Assembly: GCA_041665785.1 (NCBI GenBank)
Contig: JBAYIE010000006.1
Coordinates: 38,021 to 102,020 of the forward strand
DNA: 64,000 nt
Direction: 5' to 3'
Source of the DNA: Bacteroidia bacterium
GTDB taxonomy: Bacteria; Bacteroidota; Bacteroidia; UKL13-3
Part shown: piece after piece, positions 10,690-59,701 of the stretch
How the letters are laid out: every line of letters begins with the position of its first letter
Position numbering within the stretch: the stretch's first letter is position 1
The notes under the pieces: generated by a model
What the model was told of the DNA's origin: nothing
Databases searched by the model: none
The model's input: only the letters and a program-made list of their open reading frames with translations
Position numbers and translations under genes: made by a program

Positions 10690-10975
10690 GCAATAGTGCA
10701 TCTCCGCATGATGCAGCACAACTCCGAACGATGTAGCGCATCTCCGAATGCGCGATTCCTTTCACTACAATGTTGTAGGTGTATCATTTCTCTCCCCACG
10801 TCGCGATGTTCAACCGCGTTGCGGTTTTTTGAGGAGGGGGTGTCACGTGCGGGTTATGGAGGTTGAACCGCGTTGCGGTTATGGGTTTGTTGTTGAGTGT
10901 AAGGTTAGCCCGCCTTCGCCAAAATCTTCGGCGAGGCAATGCATTCTTCATTCTTCATTCTTCATTTTAAACCCA
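10690..10975. repeat. Composite intergenic repeat locus 1: paired GCATCTCCG hairpins, two AACCGC-GTT-GCGGTT hairpin boxes and a (CATTCTT)n microsatellite box.
   Basis: gcatctccgcatgatgc and gcgcatctccgaatgcgc hairpins. tgttcaaccgcgttgcggtt and atggaggttgaaccgcgttgcggtt boxes. ggcgaggcaatgcattcttcattcttcattcttcatttt box. The same boxes recur at three other loci in the window. Confidence 0.7.
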
Positions 10976-12630
10976 TCCTCCAAACGATTCGTTCTCCACT
11001 GCAGATTCGGATCCAAAATAGATGTACAAGGTATTTCTGCATCCCAGCATTGTGCATTACCCTCCGGCATCATCACGTATCCGCCCAGAGGCAAAGGCAC
11101 ACGCTGCATGGTGTTAGTTCCATATGGAAGCAGGGTTATCAGGTTGCGTTGGAATCGGTCTGCGGGCAAATATAATTTTGTAAAAAATATACCACCGGCT
11201 ATTAATAAAACCATGCCCCCAAACATTACCCAGCGGGCTTGAAAAAGGTGATTGAAGCGAGAAATAGTAAATCGGTGCTGAAACATCCAGGCAATGTAAA
11301 ACACGAGGTATCCAAAAATAAAACGCGTAGCGGGTGCATTCATAAACCACACCGGCATAGCCAATGCAATAGTGATTAGCAACAAAGCGGAATGCTCTTT
11401 GCGAATGATTTCCTTCCAACGTTTTCTGCTCCGGCGAATCAACAAGGCAATCATCAGAAACAAGGCATCAACCACAAACAAAGCCAACAGAAATTTACTG
11501 AACAGATCCAGATGCTTAATCCATTGCACAAACCATTGGGTGAAGGGCATCTGCTTTACCGTTTCCAAATCCACACCCGGTACACGCTCGTTCGCTATAT
11601 TGATGGCGCGTTCGTATTGCAAGGTTTCTGCACGCATTTTCCAGTCTACATCAAACAAGTCCAATTGATCCACCGGATAAAGCAGGTAACCCGATTTCAA
11701 TACATTGGTTTGCAACCAGGGTGTAAACAGCAGCAGGCAAAATAAAGTCAATACTGTAATACCTTTCCGTAACACATCCAGCTTCTGCATCAACAGCCAA
11801 CCTACAGGAATAAACAATAACGTAATGGCAGATAATTTAAATGTAACCATTGTTAAAAATACCAGCAAAAGGGGTGCCCGCTTTCTCCAATCGGAAACAG
11901 GTTGTTGAATCCATTCGGTAAATGTGATCAGTGTTAATATGGTGATCGCATAATCGTTGGTAACTGCACCCACATATTTTCGGTAGGCCATCAAAATCAG
12001 ATACAAAAAGATGACGCCCTTTAAAATGAAATTCGGATCGTTTTTGCGTGGAATAAAATACACGGTAGAAACAATCAGCAATAAAGCATTGAGTACATAA
12101 ACCGATTTCAATCCGAAGAATCCCATGCCGAAATAAGCATGCAGCAAAAACCAATTTGAATTATTGCCCAACTGCCTGCGCAAATTCCCTAAACCCTTCA
12201 CTACCGGAAATTGTTCGTCCCAACGAATGGCCTGCAAATGATAATCTCCAATATCTCCAACTCCTGCTCTGCCGGCCAGATTGAGGATAGCCGCACAAAA
12301 CACAACCATAAAAAAAATCACGTGCAAGGGCGATCCAAAACAATCCTGTTTGAGCTGTGTCAGGTATTTATTCCATTCTGCTTTAACCGGCAAAACCAAA
12401 GCAGTTAGCACCATCAATATCAGCAGGTGCACCATCCATCCCATGGGCAAAAACAAGTGCAGGATTTGTAACAGCAGGGCATCCAGACATAGACCCGGAA
12501 CCAGCAAAAAAAGTGCATGTGAAACTGTGAATTCGGTTCTGAGCAATTTCGAGAAAAGGTGTAAACAAACGATGCCGGAAACCCAGGCAACCAGAAAAGC
12601 ATAGATCAGAAATATTGCAGCGGACAGCAC
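10948..12630 (-). CDS. Polytopic integral membrane protein of unknown function.
   Basis: 560 aa with a dozen or more hydrophobic helices. The last seven codons (KMKNEE-stop) are encoded by the CATTCTTCATT repeat box. Confidence 0.55.
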   Translation of the reverse strand: MLSAAIFLIYAFLVAWVSGIVCLHLFSKLLRTEFTVSHALFLLVPGLCLDALLLQILHLFLPMGWMVHLLILMVLTALVLPVKAEWNKYLTQLKQDCFGSPLHVIFFMVVFCAAILNLAGRAGVGDIGDYHLQAIRWDEQFPVVKGLGNLRRQLGNNSNWFLLHAYFGMGFFGLKSVYVLNALLLIVSTVYFIPRKNDPNFILKGVIFLYLILMAYRKYVGAVTNDYAITILTLITFTEWIQQPVSDWRKRAPLLLVFLTMVTFKLSAITLLFIPVGWLLMQKLDVLRKGITVLTLFCLLLFTPWLQTNVLKSGYLLYPVDQLDLFDVDWKMRAETLQYERAINIANERVPGVDLETVKQMPFTQWFVQWIKHLDLFSKFLLALFVVDALFLMIALLIRRSRKRWKEIIRKEHSALLLITIALAMPVWFMNAPATRFIFGYLVFYIAWMFQHRFTISRFNHLFQARWVMFGGMVLLIAGGIFFTKLYLPADRFQRNLITLLPYGTNTMQRVPLPLGGYVMMPEGNAQCWDAEIPCTSILDPNLQWRTNRLEDGFKMKNEE

Positions 12631-12639
12631 GAAGTTAAA

Positions 12640-13803
12640 TTAAGCCAGTACCTGTTTTAAATCCTCCAGCAAATCTTCTACATCTTCTACACCTACACTG
12701 AGACGCAACAAACTATCCACCACACCAGCCTTTTCGCGCTCTGCTTTGGGAATGGAAGCATGGGTCATTGTAGCCGGATGATTTACCAGCGACTCCACAC
12801 CTCCCAAACTTTCGGCCAGTGCGAATACTTTAAATCGGGAAGCGATCCGGAACGTTTCGTTGAGGTCAGCACCTTTTAACACAATGGAAATCATCCCTCC
12901 GAAATCACGCATTTGTTTTTTGGCAATTTCGTGGTTAGGATGATCTGTGAAACCCGGCCAGTAAACTTTTTCAATTTTCGGATGTGTTTTCAAATACTGT
13001 GCAATCTGCCTTCCGTTTTCGCAATGTGCTTTCATGCGCAGGTGCAACGTTTTCAATCCGCGCAATACCAGAAAACTGTCTTGCGGACCAGGAGTAGCCC
13101 CACACGAATTATGAATAAAGGCTAGTTGCTCGTGAAGGTTATCATTGTTGGTGAGCAAAGCACCCATGATCACGTCACTGTGTCCGCCTAAATATTTGGT
13201 AACACTATGCATCACAATATCGGCACCCAGATCAAGTGGGTTTTGCAGGTATGGCGATGCAAAAGTATTATCGACTGCCAGAGTAATGGAATGCTTCTTC
13301 GCTATTGCCGCGCATGCCGCAATGTCCACAATCTGCATGGTAGGGTTAGTCGGCGTTTCAATCCAGATCAGTTTGGTATTGGGATTTATGTATGCAGAAA
13401 TATTGTTCGCATCATTCATATCGATGAAATGAAATTTGATGCCAAAATTTGCAAATACCTTGGTAAACATGCGGTATGTTCCACCGTATAAATCGTTGCC
13501 GGTAATCACTTCATCACCCGGACGCAACAGTTTGATTACTGCGTCGGTGGCTCCCATACCACTACTGAAACACAATCCGTATTTTGCATTTTCCAAAGCT
13601 GCCAGGCATTTTTCGAGGGCTGTGCGCGTCGGATTTTTTCCGCGTGCATAGGCATATCCTTTGTGTTTACCCGGACTTTCCTGCCAGAAGGTAGAAGTCT
13701 GGTAAATAGGTGTCATAACCGCTCCTGTGGTTGGATCGGGCTCTTGTCCGGCATGAATGGCTTTTGTTCCGAATTTCATATTGCGTGATTTTACTGTTGG
13801 CAA
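12640..13803 (-). CDS. PLP-dependent Cys/Met metabolism enzyme (cystathionine gamma-synthase / beta-lyase / methionine gamma-lyase family).
   Basis: GTKAIHAGQ, YARGKNPTR and the SVTKYLGGHSD lysine-site motif characteristic of this family. The real start may be the internal MKFGTK (13779). Confidence 0.8.
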   Translation of the reverse strand: MPTVKSRNMKFGTKAIHAGQEPDPTTGAVMTPIYQTSTFWQESPGKHKGYAYARGKNPTRTALEKCLAALENAKYGLCFSSGMGATDAVIKLLRPGDEVITGNDLYGGTYRMFTKVFANFGIKFHFIDMNDANNISAYINPNTKLIWIETPTNPTMQIVDIAACAAIAKKHSITLAVDNTFASPYLQNPLDLGADIVMHSVTKYLGGHSDVIMGALLTNNDNLHEQLAFIHNSCGATPGPQDSFLVLRGLKTLHLRMKAHCENGRQIAQYLKTHPKIEKVYWPGFTDHPNHEIAKKQMRDFGGMISIVLKGADLNETFRIASRFKVFALAESLGGVESLVNHPATMTHASIPKAEREKAGVVDSLLRLSVGVEDVEDLLEDLKQVLA

Positions 13804-13829
13804 ACTTAAGGCAAATCTGATTGAAGAAT

Positions 13830-13940
13830 GAATAATGAAAAATTAAGAATGAAAAGTTAAATTTCTTCATTCTTCTCACCGTCGCTTCGCTTTGGCGACA
13901 CAAAGCATTCTTCATTCTTAAATTTCTCATTCTTCATTTT
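13830..13940. repeat. Composite intergenic repeat locus 2: GGCGAC-CATTCTTCATTCTT microsatellite box.
   Basis: tcgcttcgctttggcgacacaaagcattcttcattcttaaatttctcattcttcattttt, plus reverse-orientation gaatgaa runs. Lies upstream of the PLP enzyme gene. Confidence 0.6.
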
Positions 13941-14143
13941 TAATTTATTTCCTTCAAAAACAGTCCTCTGCGAACATTTGCTTCCAAATATCATTTCCAT
14001 CTGTACTTTCGCCGCTTGTACAGCGTTTTAAGCAACGTAGCTATGGTTTTGAAATTTAATGCGATTCCATTTGCATACATTGTTTTAAACCTTAACTTTC
14101 AGAACGAAACAAAACCATTGATTACTTTCAAATAAAATAGCGC

Positions 14144-14509
14144 ATGCCTACCCAGTTTATAAAGAAGATGAACAAAACCGAAGCCGGTTTTCACCTGTTG
14201 ATGATGCTTTCTATGGCCGATGATCATATTCACCATACCGAACACGATGTCATTATTGATTTTCTGAACGATCATTTCAACGACAATATCGACCTGATCA
14301 AAGAACAAGCCTTTTTGAAAGCACTTCCAGCATCAGAGCAGGAAAGCCATTTTATGGAGACGGCAGAGCATTTGTTTGCTATCAGCAACGCCGATGAACG
14401 CCACACCATAACCCGTTTTGCCATGGATGTGGTAATGGCCGACGAAACCATGCAGCATCACGAAAATAAGCTGATCAACAAGCTGTATGATTGCTGGGAT
14501 ATCGAATAA
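14144..14509 (+). CDS. TerB-like (tellurite-resistance TerB / DjlA N-terminal-like) small protein.
   Basis: 121 aa, acidic and helical (GFHLLMMLSMADDHIHHTEHDVIIDFL...). Resembles the TerB family. Weak call. Confidence 0.4.
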   Translation: MPTQFIKKMNKTEAGFHLLMMLSMADDHIHHTEHDVIIDFLNDHFNDNIDLIKEQAFLKALPASEQESHFMETAEHLFAISNADERHTITRFAMDVVMADETMQHHENKLINKLYDCWDIE

Positions 14510-14555
14510 TCCCGGGATCAAACCTTCCCCTTTTACCCATAATTTCTGGTTTTCG

Positions 14556-15029
14556 ATGCGTGCCGGCCTTATTCTGCTGGTTGTTTTTATTCCTGTAACT
14601 TCGCTCCGGGCGCAGGATTGTGTGAATCAGGCTCTCGTAAATTCAACGTATTTCTGTCCCAATCCCGAGTTTTACCCCGTATGCGGTTGCGATGGCAAAA
14701 CTTACCGCAATTTGTGCGAAGCCCAGATGCGTAATGGCATACAATACTATACCGATGGCCCCTGCACTGGTTTTGAATTCGATATTCTACCCAATATTAC
14801 CGCTACCTACCTGGAATTTACCCTGGTTCAATCGGTTAACCCCAGTTTTGTAAAAATGATCATTATGGATGCCTGGGGCAAATTTCTGGTGATTGAGAAT
14901 GTTAGCATTACACCGCGATTTTACCGCAGCATTGATGTTTCCTGGTTGATGCAGGGAGTTTATTTTATACTTGTATACGATTCCAACGACAATTACCGGT
15001 TCCGCAGGTTCGTGAAATACAACCCATAA
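14556..15029 (+). CDS. Kazal-type serine protease inhibitor domain protein with a T9SS C-terminal domain.
   Basis: Signal peptide MRAGLILLVVFIPVTSLRAQ. Kazal signature CPNPEFYPVCGCDGKTYRNLCEAQ...GPC. The C-terminal ~90 aa resemble a Por sorting domain. Confidence 0.6.
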   Translation: MRAGLILLVVFIPVTSLRAQDCVNQALVNSTYFCPNPEFYPVCGCDGKTYRNLCEAQMRNGIQYYTDGPCTGFEFDILPNITATYLEFTLVQSVNPSFVKMIIMDAWGKFLVIENVSITPRFYRSIDVSWLMQGVYFILVYDSNDNYRFRRFVKYNP

Positions 15030-15093
15030 GCCTAAACCGGTTGATATCAAAACCTTTTTTTCACATTTTGTTGTGAATTAAGAATTCCTGCCC

Positions 15094-15101
15094 TATTTTT
15101 G
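15094..15101 (+). promoter_or_regulatory. Candidate Bacteroidetes -7 box (TAnnTTTG) for the rplM-rpsI operon.
   Basis: tatttttg lies about 37 nt upstream of the rplM start, with TTG-containing sequence about 20-25 nt further upstream. Confidence 0.3.
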
Positions 15102-15138
15102 CCACCCCTTATCAGAAAAGTATAAAAATTATTTTATC

Positions 15139-15582
15139 GTGGATACATTAAGTTATAAAACAAAGTCAGCCAACAAAGCTTCCGTTAAAAAGGATTGGTT
15201 TATTGTTGATGCTGAAGGCCAGACTCTGGGCCGTTTTGCAAGCAAAGTTGCCAATATTTTAAGAGGCAAACACAAAACCAGCTTTACCCCGCATGTGGAT
15301 TGTGGTGATAATGTGATCATTATCAACGCAGAAAAGATCCGCTTTACCGGAAACAAGCTGAACGACAAAGATTACGTATTCTATTCCGGTTTCCCGGGTG
15401 GACAGCGTTTCGAGTCGGCCAAAGTGATGCTCGAGAAAAAACCAACCTACGTTGTAGAGCATGCCATCGACGGTATGTTGCCCAACAACAAGCTGGGTCG
15501 CGAAATTTTCAGAAACCTATTTGTGTATGCAGGTACAGAACATCCGCACGCAGCACAACAACCTAAAACCTTAACCTTCTAA
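15139..15582 (+). CDS. rplM: 50S ribosomal protein L13.
   Basis: DWFIVDAEGQTLGRFASKVANILRGKHK is typical of L13. Confidence 0.9.
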   Translation: MDTLSYKTKSANKASVKKDWFIVDAEGQTLGRFASKVANILRGKHKTSFTPHVDCGDNVIIINAEKIRFTGNKLNDKDYVFYSGFPGGQRFESAKVMLEKKPTYVVEHAIDGMLPNNKLGREIFRNLFVYAGTEHPHAAQQPKTLTF

Positions 15583-15590
15583 ATCAGCTA

Positions 15591-15977
15591 ATGGAAATTA
15601 TAAACGCCATAGGAAGAAGAAAAACCGCAGTTGCCCGTGTATACCTCTCAGCAGGTACCGGAAACGTAACTGTTAACGGTAAAGATGTGAAAATATTTTT
15701 TCCGTCTGTTCTCTTACAACACGCCGTAAGCAAACCGTTTGATGTATCGAATACTGCCGGTCAGTTCGACGTTAAATGCAATGTAGATGGTGGTGGAATT
15801 ACCGGACAAGCCGATGCCATTAAACTGGCTATAGCCCGTGCCCTCGTAAAACACAATACCGAATTGAAGCCTTTGCTCAAAGCCGATGGCCTGATGACGC
15901 GCGATCCACGTATGGTGGAACGTAAGAAACCGGGACAGAAAAAGGCACGCAAACGTTTCCAGTTCGTAAAACGTTAA
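15591..15977 (+). CDS. rpsI: 30S ribosomal protein S9.
   Basis: GRRKTAVARVYL...GGGITGQADAIKLAIARAL...KKARKRFQFVKR. Confidence 0.9.
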   Translation: MEIINAIGRRKTAVARVYLSAGTGNVTVNGKDVKIFFPSVLLQHAVSKPFDVSNTAGQFDVKCNVDGGGITGQADAIKLAIARALVKHNTELKPLLKADGLMTRDPRMVERKKPGQKKARKRFQFVKR

Positions 15978-16002
15978 TCAGAATCCTTTTCAATTATAAA
16001 TT

Positions 16003-16743
16003 ATGTCAAAATTCACTCAGGAAGAGTTGTTGGAAGCGGGAGTGCACTTCGGTCACTTAACCCGCAAATGGAACCCCAAGATGGCCCCATATATTTTTAT
16101 GGAGAAAAACGGGATCCACCTCATCGATCTTAACAAGACAGCCCACAAGCTGGATGAGGCCTCTAGCGCCATTAAAAACATCGTAAAATCGGGTCGTAAG
16201 ATTTTGTTCGTGGCTACCAAAAAACAAGCCAAAGAAATCATCGAAACCGAAGCGAACAAGGTAAACATGCCCTTTGTAACCGAGCGTTGGCTGGGTGGTA
16301 TGTTAACCAACTTCACTACCGTTCGTAAATCCATCAAGAAACTCCAGAATCTGGATAAGATGGCCCAGGACGGTACTTACGCAAACATCAACAAGAAAGA
16401 ACGCCTCATGGTTGAGCGCGAGAAAATCAAGTTGACCCGCTTGCTCGGAGGTATTGCCGATTTAAACCGTTTGCCTGCTGCTCTGTTTATTGTGGACGTT
16501 AAACGCGAACACATTGCTGTGGCCGAAGCGCAAAAACTGAATATTCCAACGTTTGCCCTGGTAGATACGAATTCGGATCCTACAGTTGTAGATTTCCCGA
16601 TTCCTGCCAACGACGATGCCGCTAAATCCATAGCCCTGATCGCGAAAGTAATGACCGAAGCAATTGCTGAAGGACTTGCCGAACGCAAAAAGGATAAGGA
16701 AGAAAGCGACAAAGAAGCCGTTCCTTCAACTGAAGAAGCATAA
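16003..16743 (+). CDS. rpsB: 30S ribosomal protein S2.
   Basis: [24 protein letters not shown]...[22 protein letters not shown]. Confidence 0.9.
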
Positions 16744-16749
16744 CAAGGA

Positions 16750-16785
16750 AAATCGGCTACCAAAAAATAGCCGATTTTTTTTAAG
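16750..16785 (+). terminator. Stem-loop plus T-run between rpsB and tsf (terminator or attenuator).
   Basis: aatcggctaccaaaaaatagccgatttttttt. Confidence 0.5.
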
Positions 16786-16823
16786 GAATTATTTCAATCA
16801 CATTTATTTAAGGAGAGAAAAAC

Positions 16824-17657
16824 ATGAGTACAATTAGTGCAGGTGATGTAAACAAATTGCGCCAAATGACCGGCGCCGGAATGATGGATTGCAAAAAAGC
16901 GTTGACTGAAACCAACGGAGATTTTGAAGCCGCTGTAGATTATTTACGTAAAAAAGGTGCTAAGGTATCGGCCGCCCGTGCCGATCGCGAAGCCAAAGAA
17001 GGTGCAGTGATTGCCAAAACCACTGCCGATAAGAAAACCGGAGTGATCATTCAACTGAGTTGCGAAACTGATTTCGTGGCCAAAAACGACGACTTCGTAA
17101 AATTCGCCCATGCCGTTGCTGATCTGGCCCTGGCCAACAAACCGGCTACCGCTGAAGAACTGAAGGCATTGCCTTTTGAAGGCCTGACCCTGGGTGATAA
17201 AATCACTGAACAGGTAGGTAAGATCGGAGAAAAAATTGACGTGGTACGTTACGAACTGATGAATGGCGAGAATATCGTTCCTTATATCCATGGCGCTAAC
17301 CGTCTGGGTGTATTGGTTTCATTAAGCAGCCAGCCTACCGATGCCAATTTTGTTGCCGGTAAAGATGTAGCCATGCAGGTGGCTGCCCTGAATCCGGTGG
17401 CTTTGGATAAAGATGATGTAGATTCAGCCGTTGTAGCCCGCGAAATCGAAATCGGAAAAGAACAGGCTCGTGCCGAAGGAAAACCGGAAGCCATGCTGGA
17501 AAAAATTGCTCAGGGTAAATTGGGTAAATTCTACAAAGAATCAACCCTCATGAACCAGGAGTTTGTAAAAGACAATTCCAAAACCATCGCTCAAATGCTG
17601 GATGGCGTTGAGAAAGGCCTTACTGTGAAAGCCTTCAAACGCATAGCCTTAGGTTAA
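16824..17657 (+). CDS. tsf: Elongation factor Ts.
   Basis: VNKLRQMTGAGMMDCKKALTETNGDFEAAVDYLRKKG UBA-like N-terminus. Confidence 0.9.
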   Translation: MSTISAGDVNKLRQMTGAGMMDCKKALTETNGDFEAAVDYLRKKGAKVSAARADREAKEGAVIAKTTADKKTGVIIQLSCETDFVAKNDDFVKFAHAVADLALANKPATAEELKALPFEGLTLGDKITEQVGKIGEKIDVVRYELMNGENIVPYIHGANRLGVLVSLSSQPTDANFVAGKDVAMQVAALNPVALDKDDVDSAVVAREIEIGKEQARAEGKPEAMLEKIAQGKLGKFYKESTLMNQEFVKDNSKTIAQMLDGVEKGLTVKAFKRIALG

Positions 17658-17675
17658 TCCAATAGTATTTTAATA

Positions 17676-17735
17676 AAAAAGCGACTCCAAATTGGGGTCG
17701 CTTTTTTTATGCCCGCTCTCGCGGACTTTCAGTCC
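17676..17735. terminator. Bidirectional terminator cluster between convergent tsf (+) and a T9SS protein gene (-).
   Basis: aagcgactccaaattggggtcgctttttttat hairpin with a T-run, followed by the ctcgcggactttcagtccgtgag hairpin. Confidence 0.6.
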
Positions 17736-17798
17736 GTGAGAAGCCCTCAATAATGATTAAGTAATAGCAATTGGTTAAGTTCTCCTAGAACCATTTAA

Positions 17799-19112
17799 CT
17801 ATTCAACCACCAATTTGCGCGTTGTGGCCAGATCTCCCGCTACAATTTGCATGAAATAAATTCCGGGCTTTATATCGTGTAAGGATACCTCATGTTTCGA
17901 TGCGGCTGACTTAATTCCCCAGGTTTGAACAGACTTTCCTAACTGATCGAACAATTCCAGTTGAACCGCTGCTGCGGTGCTCAAAAGTAAGCATACACTC
18001 TGCTGAGCAGGATTGGGAAATAATTCCATGGTTGACAGCTTAATCGATTCGTCTACACCAATCACAGCACCCGGACCTCTGCCATAAAAACGCAAATTGT
18101 AATTGTCATTCGCTATAAGATAATCATCATTTACAAAAACAGCGCTGGTTCCTCCTGTACTCAACTTGCCGAGAAATCGCAAGTTGGATGGATTGGTAAC
18201 GTCGAACAGGGCAACACCAAGTGAAGTGCCAACATAGAGTGTATCTTTATACAAAAATAATCCGGAATGACCCGATGGATCAAATCCCGGAACCTGCAGG
18301 TAATTGAATGAATCCAGCTGTGCATTGTTGTTCATATTGACAGAATAAACAAAAGCTTGTGATGATGTGCTTGAGGCAGTATAAAGTATTTTATTCGGGG
18401 CATCGTACAGCATTTGATCCGGATCACCAAACAGAGCTGTCAGGGTTGTTTTGGTAACCGTTGGAGCAGCCGAAACATCCATGATATTTACATTGTATCC
18501 ATCACTCGCAATTATTTTATCAGCACTCAAACGTTGTACACTTCCGCTGTTGATCCCTGAATAACTCTTCTCCGCAATTTTTGTCAGATTGTTCAAGTCA
18601 CTCAGATCGATCAGGTAATAATTGGATCCGCTATAATGCAATTTGCTTCCTTCAATCAGAAGCGAGGCCGTCATGTATCCGATATTCTTGGTTGCAATAC
18701 CATCTTTAAAGGTATTTATTTTGCGTGTCCATACCGGATTGGCCGGTGTTGACGCATTGATAATTTGTATTCCTTTGCTTCCTATAGCATAGATATCCGA
18801 ACCGCGAAACACAAAATCAGTAACACCAAACGAATCGGTTTGAATGCCCATGCGCTTCAACCGTTTAACAGAATCAATCAGAGTGATATCGTATGTATCA
18901 AAGAATCCTTTGTACGATAAATTTACATGCTGAGCACCTGCATAAATAATGTTTGGATTCGAAGGATGAGCCTTGATGACCTTCGCATACAACCCCTCAC
19001 TTGAATACGAAAATGTAGCAACCGGGTGGTAGCTTTGAGCCTGCATGTTATTCACCAGGTAAGTCAAAACAAGGAAGAAAAGAACTTTTTTCATAATGTG
19101 TGTTGAAATCAA
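17799..19112 (-). CDS. Secreted protein with a T9SS C-terminal sorting domain; function unknown.
   Basis: Signal peptide MKKVLFFLVLTYLVNNMQAQ. C-terminal MELFPNPAQQSV...GIYFMQIVAGDLATTRKLVVE. Confidence 0.6.
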   Translation of the reverse strand: MISTHIMKKVLFFLVLTYLVNNMQAQSYHPVATFSYSSEGLYAKVIKAHPSNPNIIYAGAQHVNLSYKGFFDTYDITLIDSVKRLKRMGIQTDSFGVTDFVFRGSDIYAIGSKGIQIINASTPANPVWTRKINTFKDGIATKNIGYMTASLLIEGSKLHYSGSNYYLIDLSDLNNLTKIAEKSYSGINSGSVQRLSADKIIASDGYNVNIMDVSAAPTVTKTTLTALFGDPDQMLYDAPNKILYTASSTSSQAFVYSVNMNNNAQLDSFNYLQVPGFDPSGHSGLFLYKDTLYVGTSLGVALFDVTNPSNLRFLGKLSTGGTSAVFVNDDYLIANDNYNLRFYGRGPGAVIGVDESIKLSTMELFPNPAQQSVCLLLSTAAAVQLELFDQLGKSVQTWGIKSAASKHEVSLHDIKPGIYFMQIVAGDLATTRKLVVE

Positions 19113-19260
19113 ATATACCCTTATTCACGACATTACATCGGGATAACAGAAAGTAGCAATCTGTAACCTGCTTAGTTCCGCCTTTTATAAGATGAACTTT
19201 TTAAACGGTTGCGATGCTGATTTGCCACTTTTATTTTGCATCAATCAAAGATTTGAATGG

Positions 19261-19983
19261 TTAACCGATAGGTATACTGCCTGCGCCTTTGCCGTTGGAT
19301 ATTTTTCTTAAAAATGCGGTAACCAGTTTATGCGGAACTTCCGGTGTCGAATTATCCTGCGGTACAAAAAGTGTTGCAATAAAAAAGGGATGTTTCTCCA
19401 ACTCCAGGATGCGTGCTTCGTTCATGGAATCGGTGCCTACAATTTTAAACCCGTTTGTATGCAGATGATTTTGATACTCCGGATTGAGGCCAAAATTGCA
19501 ATAATATTTCTCCTTGATTTTGCCCTGCCCAAATACTTCAAAGGTTTGTGATTTTCTGTATATAAGTTCAATCTCCAGCGTTTGACCGGCTAATGAACAA
19601 CTCAGTGGATTGATCACCAATTTAGAAGCATAGGGATCGTATTCGGCATGCTCAGCATCCTTTATACGCAGTACATTCCGGGCATATTCAATCACCATGT
19701 GCTGAAATCCGCCACAAGTGCCTAAGACCGGTAATTTATTTTCGCGTGCAAATTGAATAACCCTCAAAGCTCCGGCCATACTTTTATAAGGACTTCCCGG
19801 TGCAATCCAGAAACCGCTATAGGTTGATACGATCCGATCAAAATCACGCTGTGCCGTATCGGTAGGGATCCAGTCATATTGGAGTGGAATAGCAAATTTT
19901 ACCATAGCATGTCCAATCGCTTCATTCGTTGCCCGGTGAGGCCTGAATCCTTCCTGAAAATCTCCTATGATGGCAAGTTTCAT
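19261..19983 (-). CDS. Class I glutamine amidotransferase-like protein (CTP synthase C-terminal region-related).
   Basis: GTCGGFQHMVIEYARN catalytic Cys motif, followed by His/Glu. The protein is stand-alone. Confidence 0.65.
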   Translation of the reverse strand: MKLAIIGDFQEGFRPHRATNEAIGHAMVKFAIPLQYDWIPTDTAQRDFDRIVSTYSGFWIAPGSPYKSMAGALRVIQFARENKLPVLGTCGGFQHMVIEYARNVLRIKDAEHAEYDPYASKLVINPLSCSLAGQTLEIELIYRKSQTFEVFGQGKIKEKYYCNFGLNPEYQNHLHTNGFKIVGTDSMNEARILELEKHPFFIATLFVPQDNSTPEVPHKLVTAFLRKISNGKGAGSIPIG

Positions 19984-20064
19984 CGTGTATGAAGTTTTAA
20001 TTTGTTATTTCTCCTTCTCTCATTGTTGCACCAAATGGCACGAATACAATTGAAACATAATTTA

Positions 20065-20511
20065 TCATTTAACTTTTCCTTTCCCCTTAACTTTTAAGAT
20101 AGTCAGACCAAAAGGTGCCTTCAACTCTTTGTAATCATACATATTCAGGTATAAAGTCAGTGTATCAAAGGTATCTTCCCAGGTAACCTTGTACATATCC
20201 AGTAAAGCCATGCCATCAAATCCATGTTGGCTTTTTACCGGACAACAACTGCCCGCTCTGAAATAGCTTACTTTTTCGCCATGCGGACCAGCCAATGCAT
20301 TAAAAAATCTTCGCTGGTTTAACGGACCTTCATTTTTGGATGCACCTCCCACTTCTATTGGGTTTTTCTCTGAATATCCATACGTATTATCCGTAGATAT
20401 TTCAGTCAGCAAAACGGTTTGTTCGTTAAGCAGCCTTGGTTTTGCTGCATGCCGCGAAGCGGAACAGGAAAACACCATCGTCGAAATCCAGATGAAAATG
20501 AAATGCTTCAT
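20065..20511 (-). CDS. Hypothetical secreted protein or lipoprotein.
   Basis: Probable start at MKHFIFIWISTMVFSCSA (lipoprotein-like). The ORF track extends 21 codons further upstream. Confidence 0.45.
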   Translation of the reverse strand: MKHFIFIWISTMVFSCSASRHAAKPRLLNEQTVLLTEISTDNTYGYSEKNPIEVGGASKNEGPLNQRRFFNALAGPHGEKVSYFRAGSCCPVKSQHGFDGMALLDMYKVTWEDTFDTLTLYLNMYDYKELKAPFGLTILKVKGKGKVK

Positions 20512-20723
20512 TAGATTTTCTTTACGAATGAGAACAAAACCAACATATCCAAAGCGATTTAACGCTTTAGTCATACTTCTCCTGAAGGGTTCTTTAAAGG
20601 TACAAAGCTTTCAGGTGAAGGCAAATTAAATTGATGGCCATTTGCAAATCTGAATTAGAAAAATGACCATTTACGGATATTGCACCATCGTATTTAACGG
20701 TCTATTGATTACATACATTTGTA

Positions 20724-21782
20724 TTAACGCCTGCCATACATAGCCTCGTAATACTGCTGATATGTTCCATTGGTAATATCATCCAGCCAATCCTGATTGT
20801 TTAAATACCAATCTACCGTCAATTCCAATCCCTGTTCCGGTTGAACAGTCGGCTTCCAGCCCAATTCCGCAGTAATCTTTTGTGCATCGATAGCATAGCG
20901 CAAATCGTGTCCGGCACGGTCGGTTACGAAGGTGATTAATTTTTCTGCTGTCCCCGATTCGTTGTTGAACCTGGTATCCATGATCCTGCAAAGCATCCGA
21001 ATCAGGTCGATATTCCGCGTTTCGTTATTTCCACCAACGTTATAGGTTTCACCAATTCGACCGCTGTGAAAAATAAGGTCGATGGCCTGCGCATGATCTT
21101 TTACAAAAAGCCAGTCGCGTATGTTTTCGCCTTTGCCATAAACAGGCAGGGGAATGCTTTTGCGAATATTGTGAATGCACAAGGGAATCAACTTCTCGGG
21201 AAACTGGTTGGGACCGTAGTTATTGGAACAGTGGCTCAACACAACGGGCAACCTATACGTATTGTGATAGGCTCGTACAAAATGGTCGGATCCGGCTTTG
21301 GATGCTGAATAAGGCGATTGCGGATCGTATGGAGTGTTTTCAGAAAATAAACCATCTGTACCTAAACTGCCATAAACTTCATCGGTTGAAACGTGATAAA
21401 AGAGTTTACCTGCATAATTTCCATTCCAGTTTTCGCGGCAAGCATTCAACAGATTTACAGTTCCGATAATATTGGTAAGCACAAAATCCATTGGACTTTC
21501 AATCGACCGGTCTACATGCGTTTCAGCTGCCAGATGAATCACACTGTCAAATGCGTGTTTTGCAAAAAGTGCATTTACCATTTCAGCATCGGTTATATCT
21601 CCTTTGATGAATTGATAATTGGACCGGCCTTCCAAATCGCTCAGGTTCTCGAGATTACCAGCATAGGTAAGTTTATCTAAGTTGAAGATCTTCGCATCCG
21701 GGTAATTGTTCACAAACAGGCGTACCACATGCGAACCAATAAATCCGGCACCTCCCGTTATAAGTATTTTTCTATTTCCCAT
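20724..21782 (-). CDS. rfbB: dTDP-glucose 4,6-dehydratase.
   Basis: ILITGGAGFIGSH..., catalytic TDEVYG and YSASKAGSDHFVRAY motifs. Confidence 0.9.
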   Translation of the reverse strand: MGNRKILITGGAGFIGSHVVRLFVNNYPDAKIFNLDKLTYAGNLENLSDLEGRSNYQFIKGDITDAEMVNALFAKHAFDSVIHLAAETHVDRSIESPMDFVLTNIIGTVNLLNACRENWNGNYAGKLFYHVSTDEVYGSLGTDGLFSENTPYDPQSPYSASKAGSDHFVRAYHNTYRLPVVLSHCSNNYGPNQFPEKLIPLCIHNIRKSIPLPVYGKGENIRDWLFVKDHAQAIDLIFHSGRIGETYNVGGNNETRNIDLIRMLCRIMDTRFNNESGTAEKLITFVTDRAGHDLRYAIDAQKITAELGWKPTVQPEQGLELTVDWYLNNQDWLDDITNGTYQQYYEAMYGRR

Positions 21783-21860
21783 GAATGTTTTCCCTGAAAT
21801 TATGGATCACTAAGTTAACGCATAAGCGGGAAATTCCTGTATGCAGGTTACAATCAATCG

Positions 21861-22883
21861 TTACCCGTTATTTCCGGCACCGGCTTGTTCCCATTTCCAG
21901 GCGCTGCGCAACATATCCTCTATGCCGTATTTGGCCTTCCAATTGAGTTCCCGTGCAGCCAGTGAGGTGTCTGCGTATACCGCACCTACATCACCTTCGC
22001 GCCTTCCGGTAAGTATATAAGGAATGGCAATCCCACTTACTTTCCCAAATGCATTGATGAGGTCGAGTACCGAATAACCAACACCGGTTCCAATATTGAA
22101 GATTTCGAATTTCTTTTTATTCTGGCCTTTTATCAGCCTTTCCAAAGCCGCAATATGCGCTGTGGCCACGTCCACCACATGAATATAATCCCGGACGCAG
22201 GTGCCGTCAGCAGTATGATAATCACTGCCAAAAACATTCAGGTGCGCTCTTTTGCCTAAAGCGGTTTCGGTTATATACGGCACCAGATGATGGGGAGGAC
22301 CGTGTTGTACTTCGCCAATCAATGCCGTTTCATGTGCCCCGATCGGATTGAAATAGCGCAAGGCTAAGGCTTCAATGGGTTTGGTTTTACTGGTATGCTC
22401 CAGAATCTCTTCGCCCATTTGCTTTGTATTGCCATAGGTAGATTCAGCTTTCTTAACCGGCTCCATTTCAGTAACGGGCAAGGTGTTTGGATTACCATAA
22501 ACCGTACACGAAGAACTGAACACAATATGTTTCACTCCATGTTCCACCATAGCCTTGAGCAGGTTGATCTGCGAAAAAAGGTTATTGTGGTAGTATTTTA
22601 ATGGTTCTGCAACCGATTCATCCACCAGCAGAATTGCAGCAAAATGAATTACTGCCTTAATTTGAGGTTCGTCGCGAAACAATTGTTCCACTTCTGAAAA
22701 GTTGCATAATTCAGTTTGGTAAAATGAAGGTCGCTTTCCGGTAATCTGCTCAATGCGGTCCAGTACTTCGATGCGCGAATTCGACAGATTATCAGCAATT
22801 ACAACATCGTATCCAGCCTGAATCAGCTCAACTACAGTGTGTGAACCGATATAGCCGGTACCCCCGGTAACAAGGATTTTCAT
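21861..22883 (-). CDS. galE: UDP-glucose 4-epimerase.
   Basis: MKILVTGGTGYIGSHTVVEL, YGNTKQMGEEIL (YxxxK), RYFNPIGAH. Confidence 0.9.
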   Translation of the reverse strand: MKILVTGGTGYIGSHTVVELIQAGYDVVIADNLSNSRIEVLDRIEQITGKRPSFYQTELCNFSEVEQLFRDEPQIKAVIHFAAILLVDESVAEPLKYYHNNLFSQINLLKAMVEHGVKHIVFSSSCTVYGNPNTLPVTEMEPVKKAESTYGNTKQMGEEILEHTSKTKPIEALALRYFNPIGAHETALIGEVQHGPPHHLVPYITETALGKRAHLNVFGSDYHTADGTCVRDYIHVVDVATAHIAALERLIKGQNKKKFEIFNIGTGVGYSVLDLINAFGKVSGIAIPYILTGRREGDVGAVYADTSLAARELNWKAKYGIEDMLRSAWKWEQAGAGNNG

Positions 22884-22888
22884 ACCAA

Positions 22889-23242
22889 TCAGGCTTGTTC
22901 AGCAGTTTCTTCCCCTTCGGTTTCTTCTTCTTCGCGGGTAGTGCCTTCCATCAGGTGACGGATATCGATTAATTCGTCTTTGTTGTACTTATTCTGGTAA
23001 TCCAACAACAGATCCAGGAAATAATCCAGATTCGCTTTTCCGTCTTCTTCTTCCAGGTATAAAAAAGTATAATCGCCGTTTGCTTCAATATTCTCATAAG
23101 CCAGACGGATCATGCGTACATATCCGGGCTCATTCAGGTTGCTCTTAAACCATTCGCGCAGTGCTTTCAGCTGTTCTATCGCCTTTACTCCAACCCCTTC
23201 ATTAGCCAATGTATTTTTCAGCGCTTCCAACAAGTTTTTCAT
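22889..23242 (-). CDS. Hypothetical acidic protein.
   Basis: 117 aa with an acidic C-terminus (TTREEEETEGEETAEQA). Only 5 nt downstream of galE, so probably co-transcribed. Confidence 0.45.
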   Translation of the reverse strand: MKNLLEALKNTLANEGVGVKAIEQLKALREWFKSNLNEPGYVRMIRLAYENIEANGDYTFLYLEEEDGKANLDYFLDLLLDYQNKYNKDELIDIRHLMEGTTREEEETEGEETAEQA

Positions 23243-23305
23243 CTTTATTTGAGTTTTGTTTTGGCAACGAAACTAAACAATTTAAATATTGTAAAAAACT
23301 CAAAT

Positions 23306-23677
23306 ATGAAAGCGATCTCAACCATAGGCCTGCTGGTAGTTTCCAACCTCTTTATGACATTTGCCTGGTATGGCCATTTACAGTTTCAGAAAATAGGCTG
23401 GTTTAAAGGTACGGGGTTGATTGGAATCATCCTGATCAGCTGGTTTATCGCCTTGCTTGAATATGCTTTTCAGGTGCCGGCCAATCGCATAGGTTTTTCA
23501 AACAACGGTGGACCTTTTTCTATGGTTGAACTCAAAACCATTCAGGAAGCTATTTCTATTTTGGTCTTTATCCTGGTCAATGTGTTCATTTTTCGTGAAG
23601 GCCCTGTTCAATGGAATCATGCCCTTGGATTTATCCTCATCATTTTGGCGGTTTATATTATCTTTAAAAAGTGGTAA
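23306..23677 (+). CDS. Small DMT-superfamily membrane protein (DUF486-like).
   Basis: Four predicted transmembrane helices and AWYGHLQFQ / FQVPANRIGF motifs. Start taken at MKAIST. Confidence 0.55.
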   Translation: MKAISTIGLLVVSNLFMTFAWYGHLQFQKIGWFKGTGLIGIILISWFIALLEYAFQVPANRIGFSNNGGPFSMVELKTIQEAISILVFILVNVFIFREGPVQWNHALGFILIILAVYIIFKKW

Positions 23678-24285
23678 ACAAGATGCATCCCCGCGCAGCA
23701 CAGGCTCTATCGGTTGTTTTTCACCCGGTTTTTGTAAACAGTTTTTCGCTTCTGCTGTTGTTTCTGCTTTTTCCTTCACTGCGGTATGGAGTACATCCGG
23801 CGATGAAAGTTTTTTACTGGTCCGTTATTTTCATTTCTACCGGAATTGTTCCCATGGCCTGGGTAGGTGTGTCACGCCTGTTGGGCAAAATCGATTCTAT
23901 CCTGTTGCCCAACAGCGACGACCGCAACCTGCCTTATATTCTTACAGCCAGTTTGTACATGCTCGATTTTTACCTGGCCGGACAATGGGGTGCTTCTTCT
24001 CTTTTCAGAGCCTATTTGCTGGCTTGCAGCAGCGTGGTTGTTTCTGTGTTAATCATCAATCAATTTACTAAAATAAGTATCCATGCTGCCAGTTTAGGAG
24101 CTCTGGCCGCCGTTATTCACCAATCGGCATTGGTAGCGGGTTTTGATGTGCGTTACCTGATGATTGCTGCATTGGTGATTTCAGGTTTGGTACTTTCTGC
24201 TCGTCTTTGGGCTGAATCACACACATCAACTCAAGTGTATTTAGGTTTCTTGGTTGGTTTCTTATGGATGGTACTAATGTTATAA
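23671..24285 (+). CDS. Integral membrane protein, possibly PAP2-like.
   Basis: Multiple transmembrane helices. KISIHAAS and ARLWAESH only partially match PAP2 motifs 2 and 3. Low confidence. Confidence 0.45.
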   Translation: MVNKMHPRAAQALSVVFHPVFVNSFSLLLLFLLFPSLRYGVHPAMKVFYWSVIFISTGIVPMAWVGVSRLLGKIDSILLPNSDDRNLPYILTASLYMLDFYLAGQWGASSLFRAYLLACSSVVVSVLIINQFTKISIHAASLGALAAVIHQSALVAGFDVRYLMIAALVISGLVLSARLWAESHTSTQVYLGFLVGFLWMVLML

Positions 24286-24339
24286 CGAATTGCTGAATTT
24301 GTCCTATTGCTCAACTATATTCATTACAAAGCCCTACAG

Positions 24340-24850
24340 GAAATGCATTCTTCATTTTTCCCGCCGCCGCTGCGCTATGGCGAGGCGAGGCATTTTTCAT
24401 TCTTCATTTCATGTCCCGACAGCAGGGCTAGTCAGTCTTCGTTAAAGCTACTACCGGTCAAGTTCGCTATAGCTATGGCGAGACAAGGCATTTTCTCACC
24501 TCGCGTTGTTCAACCGCGTTGCGGTTGTGGGGTCTTTTCTTCGCATAGAGTTATGGAGGTTGAACCGCGTTGCGGTTTGTCGGGGCATGATCTGAATTTA
24601 AAGGGATAACATAACGCATTAACGAATATGCGATTCATATTGCCCAACATCGTTTTGGTGAGATGAGTCAGTCTTCGCTATAGCTTCGACAGAACAAATC
24701 CATCTACGATAAAGCTACGGCGAGGCAACGCATTCTTCATTCTTCCCGCCGCCGCTAAGGCTTTGGCGAGACAAGGCATTTTTCCCTCCTACGCTAATGC
24801 TACTGTGGACAATGCATTCCTCATTTTTAATTCTTCATTTTTAATTTTAA
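24340..24850. repeat. Composite intergenic repeat locus 3: two CATTCTTCATT + CCCGCCGCCGCT + GGCGAG boxes flanking two AACCGC-GTT-GCGGTT hairpin boxes.
   Basis: gcattcttcatttttcccgccgccgctgcgctatggcgaggcgaggcattttt. tgttcaaccgcgttgcggttgtgg. atggaggttgaaccgcgttgcggtttg. gcattcttcattcttcccgccgccgctaaggctttggcgagacaaggcattttt. Confidence 0.7.
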
Positions 24851-24863
24851 TTATCTTCCCGCC

Positions 24864-25646
24864 ATGAGTTACGAAACCATTTTATATGAAGTAAACGACG
24901 GTATAGCTACCCTCACGCTGAACCGTCCGGATGTATTCAATGCCTTTAACGAACAGCAGAGTTTTGATGTGCTGGACGCATTGAAAAAAACCGAAAAAGA
25001 TAAATCCATCCGTGTACTGATTATCACAGGAGCAGGCAAAGCGTTTTGTTCGGGTCAGGACCTGAAAAGTATAGCCGGAAGCCAGAATCGTTCCTTGAGC
25101 GATTCGTTGTACAAACGTTACAATCCCATGATCCGTGCATTGCGCAACATACCCATACCGGTTATATGCAAACTCAACGGTGTGGCTGCAGGCGCCGGAT
25201 GCTCGCTAGCACTGGCCTGCGATTTTATTGTAGCGTCAGAGGTTGCAACGTTAATTGAAGTGTTTATACATGTTGGTCTGGTACTTGATTCCGGATCTTC
25301 ATACTTCCTTCCGCGTATAGTTGGATCCAACCGTGCATTTGAACTCAGTACCATGGGTGGAAAAGTTTCGGCTATGCAGGCACTCGAATGGGGAATGGTA
25401 AACCGTCTAGTGAAACATGAAGAACTGGATGCAGAGACGCAAAAAATTGCAGCCTTTTATGCGCAAGCTCCTACCAAGGCAATTGCATTGATCAAAAAAA
25501 TGCTGAATAAATCTTCTCACTCAGATCTCGATACCATGTTGCAGTACGAAGCCTATTGCCAGGAAATTGCAGGTCGCAGCGATGATTACAAAGAGGGCGT
25601 TAGTGCTTTCAACGAAAAACGTAAAGCAGCATTCAAAGGTTCATAA
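24864..25646 (+). CDS. Enoyl-CoA hydratase/isomerase (crotonase) family protein.
   Basis: LTLNRPDVFNAFN, ITGAGKAFCSGQDLK, VICKLNGVAAGAGCSLALACDF. Confidence 0.85.
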   Translation: MSYETILYEVNDGIATLTLNRPDVFNAFNEQQSFDVLDALKKTEKDKSIRVLIITGAGKAFCSGQDLKSIAGSQNRSLSDSLYKRYNPMIRALRNIPIPVICKLNGVAAGAGCSLALACDFIVASEVATLIEVFIHVGLVLDSGSSYFLPRIVGSNRAFELSTMGGKVSAMQALEWGMVNRLVKHEELDAETQKIAAFYAQAPTKAIALIKKMLNKSSHSDLDTMLQYEAYCQEIAGRSDDYKEGVSAFNEKRKAAFKGS

Positions 25647-25655
25647 TCCAGGCGT

Positions 25656-26054
25656 ATGAAAACAACCGATATCCACCAAACACTCACCTTCCCAACCACT
25701 CCGCTTGATCTGTATCAATGCCTGATGGATGAACGAAAGCACAGTTCATTCACCGGATCTCCTGCAGTGATTGAAGACAAAGAAGACACATCCTTCACAA
25801 CATATGATGGATATATTGAAGGTAAAAATATTGTACTGGAACGCGGAAAGAAAATTGTGCAAACCTGGAAAGCCAACGAAGAAGAATGGCCGGAAAATCA
25901 CTTTTCGGAAGTGGTTTTTTCGCTGAGTGCGTCGCCTGAAGGTTGCCTGCTTGAATTTTATCATACTGCCGTTCCGGAGACTTTGGCTAAGGATATAGAG
26001 GCAGGCTGGGCCCAATATTACTGGGATCCATTGCGGTATTACCTGAACCGGTAA
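25656..26054 (+). CDS. SRPBCC superfamily protein (AHSA1 / activator of Hsp90 ATPase-like).
   Basis: 132 aa with a start and length consistent with an AHSA1-type domain. Confidence 0.6.
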   Translation: MKTTDIHQTLTFPTTPLDLYQCLMDERKHSSFTGSPAVIEDKEDTSFTTYDGYIEGKNIVLERGKKIVQTWKANEEEWPENHFSEVVFSLSASPEGCLLEFYHTAVPETLAKDIEAGWAQYYWDPLRYYLNR

Positions 26055-26159
26055 GTTTATCGGTGTGCGGTTTTTGTAACTCTTAAACTAGTTGCACCAA
26101 CTTGTCCTGCAATCTTCCTTTATTGATTTTACTGGTTAGTCATCACTTAACTTCGACCT

Positions 26160-26715
26160 ACAGGTACGTCGCGATGTACAACCGCGTTGCGGTTGGATGT
26201 CACGTCAGCTGCCTACGCCATCTGTTATTGAGGTGAAACCGCGTTGCGGTTAGTTGCTGCTGGCTATGGTTTCAGCTATTGGGTGAGATATAGCATTACG
26301 ATCAGTTGCTTGCTATCTTTGGCTTCGGTTATTGAGGTGTAACCGCGTTGCGGTTAGTTGCGGTTAGTTGCTGCTGGCTATGGTTTCCGTAAGCAGAGTG
26401 ATATTGCGTTACGATTAGTTGCTCGCTTACTTTGGCTTCGGTTATTGAGGGGTAACCGCGTTGCGGTTTGTTGAGGTTAGTTGCTGCTGGCTATGGTTTC
26501 CGTTAGCAGAGTGATATTGCGTTGCAATTAGTTGCTTGCTGTCCTTAGCTTTTGTTATTGAGGTGTAACCGCATTGCGGTTAGTTGCATCGTTGCATAAT
26601 GATAGATTATGAATCGTTTCCTTCCCCTGCACTTCGGTGAGGCGATGCATTCTTCCCGCCGCCGCTAAAGCTACCGCGGGCAATGCATTTTTCATTCTTC
26701 ATTCTTCATTTTCTC
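26160..26715. repeat. Composite intergenic repeat locus 4, including a ~3.4-copy tandem array of ~105-119 bp units (26223..26590). Each unit carries the AACCGC-GTT-GCGGTT hairpin. The locus ends with CCCGCCGCCGCT and (CATTCTT)n boxes.
   Basis: Units begin gttattgagg(t/g)g(t/a)aaccgcgttgcggttagttgc...gctgctggctatggtttc...gatattgcgtt(a/g)c(g/a)attagttgct...ctttggcttcg. Terminal gatgcattcttcccgccgccgctaaagctaccgcgggcaatgcatttttcattcttcattcttcatttt. Confidence 0.75.
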
Positions 26716-27105
26716 CCCCACCCATTCCCGTATATAATCAACAATCTCATGGGTATTGGCGCCCGGAAGAAACAATTTTCCAACGCCTGCTTTTGTGAGT
26801 GTTTTTAAATCTTCGTCCGGAATAATTCCACCACCTGTAAGCAGAATATCGCTGAGGCCTTCCTGCTTCATCAATTCGAGTAACCTTGGAAATACAGTAT
26901 TGTGTGCCCCTGATAAGATACTCACACCGATTACATCCACATCTTCCTGGAGGGCTGATTTAACAACCATTTCAGGTGTCTGACGCAATCCGGTGTAAAT
27001 AACTTCCATGCCGGCATCGCGCAGTGCGGTGGCAATTACTTTGGCTCCGCGGTCGTGGCCATCGAGGCCAACTTTTGCTACCAGTACGCGTATAGGTCTA
27101 TTCAT
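26692..27105 (-). CDS. Cobalamin (B12)-binding domain protein, similar to the methylmalonyl-CoA mutase C-terminal domain.
   Basis: [33 protein letters not shown]...[14 protein letters not shown]12-binding Rossmann signature (DxHxxG). The final KMKNEE-stop is encoded by the CATTCTTCATT repeat box. Confidence 0.8.
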
Positions 27106-33736: not shown

Positions 33737-33828
33737 AATTATGTGGTTGAATTGGGGTACGAATTACGGGGTCAACGAGCCGAATTACAAGCGATGAATG
33801 AGAACTTCGGAAATTTATTTAGAAATAA

Positions 33829-34639: not shown

Positions 34640-34754
34640 AGGCTTTAATAAATTACTAAATAACCTGATTAACCCTACTCTTCAAAACGAATATTAGAGT
34701 TCCCGACTATCCATTCACAAATAACATAATTAACTGATTTCTTACTCTCGCAAC

Positions 34755-35130: not shown

Positions 35131-35133
35131 CTT

Positions 35134-59694: not shown

Positions 59695-59701
59695 GCAAAC
59701 C

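Follow-up and report, generated by a model that had tools for sequence, protein, structure and literature searches.

The KMKNEE ending shared by two unrelated genes of a Bacteroidia bacterium is most probably the passive read-out of a heptanucleotide tandem repeat

Two genes with the same ending

In a 64,000-nucleotide (nt) stretch of the genome of a Bacteroidia bacterium (GCA_041665785.1, contig JBAYIE010000006.1), referred to at its full length as the window, two unrelated genes on the minus strand end with the same six codons and stop, KMKNEE-stop, at the point where each meets a tandem repeat of the heptanucleotide AAGAATG. The first gene (10948..12630) encodes a membrane protein of 560 amino acids, which ends in RLEDGFKMKNEE-stop (...EDGFKMKNEE-stop). 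A direct Pfam scan of this protein gave no match; the precomputed domains of its homologs (P0001, 100% identical) place it in the DUF8201/PF26626 membrane family, which one source names LIC_10190. The second gene (26692..27105) encodes a protein of 137 amino acids with a PF02310 B12-binding domain (Pfam scan, E=9.5e-24), which databases name the C-terminal subunit of methylmalonyl-CoA mutase; we call it the B12 subunit below.

Translation of both open reading frames (ORFs) confirmed the two tails, which the initial annotation of the window had pointed out. On the minus strand, the codons AAA ATG AAG AAT GAA GAA occupy 10951-10968 and 26695-26712, and the TGA stops, each the reverse complement of a TCA on the plus strand, occupy 10948-10950 and 26692-26694. 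The two segments, 10948-10968 and 26692-26712, are identical over 21 nt (TCATTCTTCATTCTTCATTTT on the plus strand) and lie within heptamer runs at both sites, so the further proposal that the repeat supplies the tail together with the stop codon holds as well. Tandem Repeats Finder reports the runs on the plus strand as (CATTCTT)3.6, with 100% matches at 10942..10966 and with 94% matches and a first unit CATTTTT at 26686..26710. With a period of 7 and 3.6 copies at both gene ends, this is a tandem direct repeat of at least two copies, and the gene strand reads it as (AAGAATG)n. The 24-mer AATGCATTCTTCATTCTTCATTTT given earlier for the repeat occurs verbatim at neither site: the exact common string is 21 nt long, with GCATT followed by three CTTCATT units at the first site and with GCATTTTTCATT coming first at the second. 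The runs are part of a longer element, which consists of a GC-rich core of about 36 nt (consensus CCCGCCnnCGCTAAAGCTACGGCGAGGCAATGCATT) followed by (CTTCATT)n, and ten copies in the window align to it.

Both protein sequences, tails included, are present in independent assemblies (NCBI, JGI, Logan, and ENA), and the tail is the same in three assemblies of the source species. MFA6262333.1 and MFA6262315.1 are NCBI proteins of the source metagenome-assembled genome. An assembly artefact as the source of the tails is ruled out by the presence of the same proteins in several assemblies, and chance identity of the two tails is ruled out by the underlying DNA, which is the repeat.

Reading frames of the heptamer run

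The AAGAATG unit holds a TGA, and as this triplet returns every 7 nt, successive TGAs rotate through the three frames. Because the period is not a multiple of three and every unit brings a TGA, each of the three frames meets a stop within 21 nt of run. Reading backwards from an in-frame TGA, the codons are those for E, E, N, K, M, and R, and then comes the preceding TGA. Since the read-out is fixed in this way, every ORF running into the repeat finishes with RMKNEE-stop or with a suffix of it. The two ORFs of the window meet the run at the element end (AAAATGAAG...), share one phase there, and both use the third TGA of the run as their stop, which accounts for their identical tails. The probability that two ORFs abutting the same repeat end share a phase is 1/3.

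We put the probability that KMKNEE-stop is the passive read-out of the heptanucleotide tandem repeat lying on both 3' ends at roughly 85%. The shared ending is probably an ordinary by-product of the repeat, with the tail itself presumably neutral. Two observations weigh against this reading. One concerns the phase. A metagenome scan with the degenerate core GGCGAGRCRABGCATTYTT gave 118 loci, nearly all of them chance single matches, and the only one bearing the element family (L211) has an ORF end, ...IEKMKE-stop, in the same phase. All three of three ORF ends with this element family share the phase AAA ATG AAG, for which the chance is 1/9, and they hint at a nonrandom phase, a hint that is suggestive at most. 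The other concerns the native DUF8201 tail (R-I-K-N-...), which resembles K-M-K-N-E-E; the tail could thus be ancestral in part, or the junction could have been directed by microhomology.

Homologs and close relatives

None of the 224 retrieved homologs of the two proteins ends in KMKNEE. The DUF8201 proteins inspected (n = 75) end in ...DGF(R/K)I followed by 2-7 variable residues, and the tail of the window protein extends 6 residues past GF, compared with about 2-9 in most homologs. The B12 subunits listed (n = 60) end in ...EWV followed by 5-6 variable residues; their length, across 120 homologs, is 133-147 amino acids with a mode of 135, against 137 here. As the tails are as long as those of the homologs, the repeat substitutes for a dispensable tail and adds no real extension to either protein.

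Metagenome assemblies contain relatives of the two genes at graded distances. In SRR17843154 (L123, L124), the DUF8201 protein is 53% and the B12 subunit 88% identical to that of the window; the former ends in GFRIKNSTN-stop without any run and the latter in ...DWVERNRPNT-stop. This genome is syntenic with the window (L123), and its spacers are short: the convergent spacer between the B12 and AHSA1 genes measures 9 nt and is repeat-free, compared with 637 nt of repeats in the window, and the spacer between ECH and PAP2 measures 92 nt compared with 578 nt. In SRR33452767 (L243), no B12 gene was found, and the DUF8201 ortholog, 92% identical and 560 amino acids long as in the window, ends in GFRMKDEK-stop at the third TGA of about nine degenerate ARRATGA units, with 3 of the 6 tail residues different. 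In SRR28401846 (L001, L122), with identities of 83% for DUF8201 and 95% for the B12 subunit, both genes also end in a repeat, of another unit: GFRGK-stop lies inside GTGAATGA/GTAAATGA units and EWAKVNE-stop inside GTAAATGA units. The GTAAATGA repeat (L001 6670-6784, L122 3385-3440) has a period of 8 and stops in all frames, and at the DUF8201 locus GAATGCTTGCC cores come after the repeat units. Each genome thus has one repeat unit at its two loci, and this unit differs between the two genomes, the window and SRR28401846.

The occurrence of repeat-ended orthologs in these relatives indicates that a repeat has stood at these gene ends since before the lineages split. The peptide drifts along with the repeat unit, and only the early stop is maintained. 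The ortholog comparison that had been proposed for the window therefore came out in favor of the repeat: it occupies the place of ancestral, nonconserved C-terminal codons, as seen from the repeat-free locus L123 and from the lack of KMKNEE in all of the homologs.

The resemblance of the family tails GFRIKNE-stop, GFRIKNSTN-stop, and GFRIEND-stop to GFKMKNEE could also mean that DUF8201, at least, inherited its tail from an ancestor and that the heptamer run arose by local duplication of this gene's own 3' end; between AGGATTAAGAAC of L124 and AAAATGAAGAAT, 8 of 12 positions match. We consider this highly improbable. Elsewhere in the window, this run accompanies the same 36-nt core seven more times, and it is found in many phyla, which means that it did not originate from the DUF8201 gene; moreover, the tail of the B12 family (EWV-K-x-N-R-x-x) is dissimilar, and KMKNEE occurs in no ortholog.

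The difference in run length between close relatives, about 9 versus 3.6 units, bears on yet another possibility, namely, that the run is a slippage-prone contingency locus which toggles the C terminus between a short and an extended form. Each run offers exactly three TGAs, of which the ORF uses the last, and the sequence predicts that loss of one unit would carry the ORFs on into the core, for about 12 codons in one case and about 31 in the other. However, a change by whole units leaves the protein as it is while three or more remain, so that unit number alters the protein only below three TGAs, and runs of about 9 and of 3.6 units both give 560 amino acids. The agreement of the three assemblies of the species on the tail and the nature of the genes, which are housekeeping genes and not surface or restriction genes, make such a switch hardly credible.

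Under the reading of the tail as a passive read-out, the history may have been as follows. A composite intergenic element would have colonized several spacers of this Bacteroidia genome and replaced the short, variable, nonconserved tail together with the native stop, reaching as far as the final conserved residues (GF(K/R) and EWV). Insertion or expansion would have been followed by selective filtering, in which only those insertions survived that kept an early stop and left the functional domain intact. Such filtering could explain the placement of the element at gene ends. The four genomes form an evolutionary series in which intergenic repeats would advance to the edge of functional constraint, overwriting dispensable protein tails.

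Two further observations were made around the B12 gene. In L122, the genes downstream of it are rearranged, with a resistance-nodulation-division (RND) efflux operon in place of AHSA1/ECH. Between the glutamyl-tRNA synthetase and B12 genes of the window lies an ORF of 251 amino acids (27102-27857, minus strand) with no Pfam match. As listed, it overlaps the glutamyl-tRNA synthetase ORF (27746-29278, minus strand) by 112 nt, and relatives call it with 215-217 amino acids; its true start is probably further downstream.

Heptamer runs in other genomes

We scanned a species-representative genome collection with the heptamer 18-mer CATTCTTCATTCTTCATT, which gave at least 120 stretches among the matches listed; the window's own genome is not among them. 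All counts given in this section refer to these listed matches. They come from Prevotellaceae, Bacteroidaceae, Saprospiraceae, Verrucomicrobia (Verrucomicrobiota), Kiritimatiellae, Planctomycetota, cyanobacteria, Clostridia, and Parabeggiatoa. For 112 (CATTCTT)n runs there was enough flanking sequence for analysis, with an ORF threshold of at least 100 amino acids, and in 25 of the 112 such an ORF ends inside the run. The stops of these 25 ORFs fall only at offsets 2, 9, or 16, and the first, second, and third TGA are used in 8, 8, and 9 cases, respectively (6, 8, and 9 of 23 in an earlier count). The corresponding tails are ...E-stop, ...NEE-stop, and ...(R/K/x)MKNEE-stop; one ORF (L080) has the exact ending KMKNEE-stop. 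Seven of the run-ending ORFs were scanned, and all are genuine genes (GltD-like, TsaE, NUDIX, FlK thioesterase, MgsA, QueA, and an HTH regulator) with Pfam domains reaching within a few residues of the run. The full peptide is not preferred over the shorter read-outs in other genomes.

These counts speak to the suggestion in the initial annotation that the tail could act as a degron or tag. If KMKNEE were a functional, genomically encoded C-terminal tag delivered by the repeat, whether a degron or a sorting signal, one could point to the same six-residue ending on two unrelated proteins within 16 kb, to the metagenome ORF of L211, which ends ...EKMKE-stop in the same phase, and to the recurrence of KMKNEE-stop and RMKNEE-stop in other phyla. 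But with the uniform use of phases (8/8/9) most run-ending ORFs receive only E-stop or NEE-stop. In relatives the tail follows the repeat and has evolved more rapidly than the protein as a whole (RMKDEK at 92% identity); in the sister genome SRR28401846, the unrelated tails GFRGK-stop and EWAKVNE-stop come from another repeat unit. Bacterial degrons known at C termini, the ssrA tag among them, have hydrophobic ends, and the tail here is acidic and hydrophilic; its recipients are housekeeping enzymes without a functional link. The suggestion is not borne out, and we regard a tag function as very unlikely.

The orientation of the runs relative to genes was also recorded, for loci L002-L121 together with the window. 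ORFs reading AAGAATG end inside the run or within 30 nt of it in 54 of the 112 cases, compared with 17 of 112 for ORFs reading CATTCTT (48 versus 7 in an earlier count), and the CATTCTT-reading ORFs end more often at a distance of 31-100 nt (37 cases). Inverted pairs of the form (GAATGAA)n-spacer-(TTCATTC)n are common among the runs. In Bacteroidales/Prevotellaceae, the run ends at a distance of 7-9 nt from a TAnnTTTG downstream of it; this was so for 9 of 121 runs, compared with 1 of 121 in the control orientation, and the fixed spacing was seen at L002, L033, L052, L064, L073, L079, L082, L112, and L117. TAnnTTTG is the Bacteroidetes -7 promoter box, and the run occupies the place of the -33 region.

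From the polarity and the spacing to the -7 box, there is a small chance that heptamer runs have a role at gene boundaries. More specifically, the (CATTCTT)n/(AAGAATG)n run might be a functional module common to many phyla, such as a site bound by a protein, with selection acting on its position at gene boundaries. This appears doubtful to us; what speaks for it are the multiphylum occurrence, the 3'-end polarity, and the TAnnTTTG spacing. KMKNEE tails would in that case mark genes with a regulated 3' boundary. If polarity and promoter spacing hold, heptamer runs would be worth studying as boundary elements, which is a question separate from that of the tail.

The element in the window and its folding

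The ten copies of the element lie in four spacers (10.6-10.97, 13.8-13.95, 24.3-24.86, and 26.06-26.71 kb). Every one of the cores is on the plus strand, and the neighboring genes are variously tandem, divergent, codirectional, or convergent. The 19-mer CATTCTTCATTCTTCATTT has 8 matches in the window at no more than 2 mismatches and none in 100 shuffles. Behind the DUF8201 gene stands the GC-rich core of copy D (CCCGCCTTCGCC-AAAATC-TTCGGCGAGGCAATGCATT; 10915..10945, plus strand), which alignment and folding describe as a core with a modest hairpin. Core copies F and C (26618..26689, plus strand) lie directly upstream of the run on the plus strand, that is, past the 3' end of the B12 gene. The Cys/Met-PLP gene (12640..13803, minus strand) and the ORF at 14144 (plus strand) diverge from a spacer that holds an inverted pair (13820..13946) made up of a degenerate (TGAAGAA)n run, core copy G, and a (CATTCTT)n run. 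A reverse-oriented heptamer run lies at 13820-13853 in this spacer. Of the features of a MITE, terminal inverted repeats are not seen in the aligned copies, and inverted heptamer runs occur at one locus, 13820-13946. Copies E0 and E, with short heptamer runs (24312..24412, plus strand), follow the ORF at 23671..24285, and after them come copies I, H, A, and B (24448..24852, plus strand), the last run of which stops 12 nt short of the ATG at 24864, where the enoyl-CoA hydratase gene begins.

A second repeat family, the AACCGCGTTGCGGTT palindrome, accompanies the heptamer element and is present in the relatives L243 and L211 too. Nine copies occur in the window, at 10812, 10866, 24512, 24563, 26180, 26237, 26341, 26454, and 26567. 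The first two make up the pair at 10812..10880 (plus strand), and a 113-nt tandem repeat present three times (26243..26587, plus strand) carries the palindrome inside the 637-nt convergent spacer between the AHSA1 and B12 genes.

The repeat had also been thought to form a hairpin at the 3' end of the transcript. The case for this proved weak: a terminator scan found no intrinsic terminator (hairpin plus T-run) on the minus strand downstream of either gene, and the folds after the two stops are not significantly better than those of shuffled sequences (z = -1.64 and -1.09). Of the predicted hairpins, two others gave z values of -0.28 and -1.34 against shuffles, and the inverted pair at 13815-13950 is the only segment that folds significantly (z about -4). 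Searched against Rfam at gathering thresholds, the entire window matched only a tRNA-Ser.

These results make it unlikely that the element serves the transcript, whether by forming a hairpin or terminator at the 3' end or by bringing about translation termination or ribosome stalling at the stop codon, with the placement of the element selected and the peptide incidental. A GC-rich hairpin does begin about 14 nt past each stop, elements occupy spacers between convergent genes, the polarity of the runs at gene ends is strong (54/112 versus 17/112), and REP elements near stop codons are said to affect translation in E. coli. Yet neither locus has a terminator-like site on the gene strand, the fold energies do not exceed those of shuffles, no Rfam family matches the element, and its ten copies all lie on the plus strand regardless of the direction of the neighboring genes. 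As for the polarity, selection against read-through of runs oriented without stops can account for it.

Comparison with known repeats

On this heptamer, or on heptamer repeats in Bacteroidetes, the only literature that we found is the description of TAACTGA heptamer direct repeats by MacGregor (2015, Front Microbiol 6:1397, PMC4679880). Those repeats occur in Beggiatoaceae, Cyanobacteria, and five Bacteroidetes, with a patchy distribution across phyla. In forward orientation they contain stops in all three frames, which limits their overlap with an ORF end to at most 18 nt, and 13 ORFs have a stop overlapped by them; relatives without the repeats have shorter spacers, and in the BOGUAY genome the repeats lie mostly just upstream of start codons (PMC4679880). 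The runs described here share the period of 7, the two to several tandem copies, the mostly intergenic location, the stops in all frames, the overlapped ORF stops, the shorter spacers in repeat-free relatives, and the patchiness across phyla, and the 18 nt of the KMKNEE tail equal the maximum overlap of TAACTGA. They differ in the unit (AAGAATG/CATTCTT), which makes them repeats of the same kind and not of the same family, in being joined to a GC-rich core of about 36 nt, and in their commonest neighbor among the runs sampled here, which is the 3' end of a gene, unlike in BOGUAY. The shared ending is the same phenomenon as that of the TAACTGA repeats, with a different unit on a GC-rich core, and calls for no new mechanism.

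Similarities to other dispersed repeats are partial. Cyanobacterial heptamers of the short tandemly repeated repetitive (STRR) type and their associated small dispersed repeats were reportedly treated by Mazel et al. in 1990 and by Elhai et al. in 2008. STRR are genome-specific families of tandem heptamers that fill intergenic regions, with several families per genome; the window resembles this in that several heptamer families coexist in it (also AATTACG/TACGAAG/ACTTCGT arrays), and differs in the host, a Bacteroidia metagenome-assembled genome, and in the units. REP, BIME, and REPIN sequences are short, GC-rich, imperfect palindromes that cluster in the spacers between genes, frequently behind a stop codon and where genes converge. 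The element is likewise GC-rich, clustered in spacers, and mosaic with other repeat families; its hairpins, however, are weak, and REPs have no heptamer tail and normally supply no stop codon. No RAYT transposase was identified in the window, in which no search aimed at transposases was made. Rickettsia palindromic elements and Neisseria Correia elements are dispersed repeats that give codons to unrelated proteins, but the segments that they add are internal or longer, and they carry terminal inverted repeats, whereas the element here gives at most 6 terminal codons plus the stop through a simple-sequence run. The ssrA tag is added cotranslationally by transfer-messenger RNA (tmRNA), ends in hydrophobic residues, and is recognized by proteases. 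The KMKNEE tail is like it in being a short C-terminal peptide common to unrelated proteins and unlike it in being gene encoded, acidic, and not conserved. For annotation, this calls for caution: simple repeats with stops in all frames can produce identical short C termini on unrelated proteins, which should not be taken for tags.

Other repeats in the window

A second heptamer-based system lies at 33825-34213 and 34750-35134. One part is a unit of 89-97 nt in 4.3 copies, which combines AATTACG/TACGAAG heptamers with about 60 nt of unique sequence; the oppositely oriented family combines ACTTCGT heptamers with TTCCCGTGACCAAAAG..CTAACTTAGCACCC. The ORF at 35134..36003 (minus strand) stops exactly at the edge of the ACTTCGT array. 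Elsewhere, the tRNA-Ser(GGA) gene (59609-59696) is followed by a hairpin and then by a 144-nt direct repeat (59738-60003; 1.8 copies, 95% identical), which may represent either the duplicated region of an attachment site or one more intergenic repeat.

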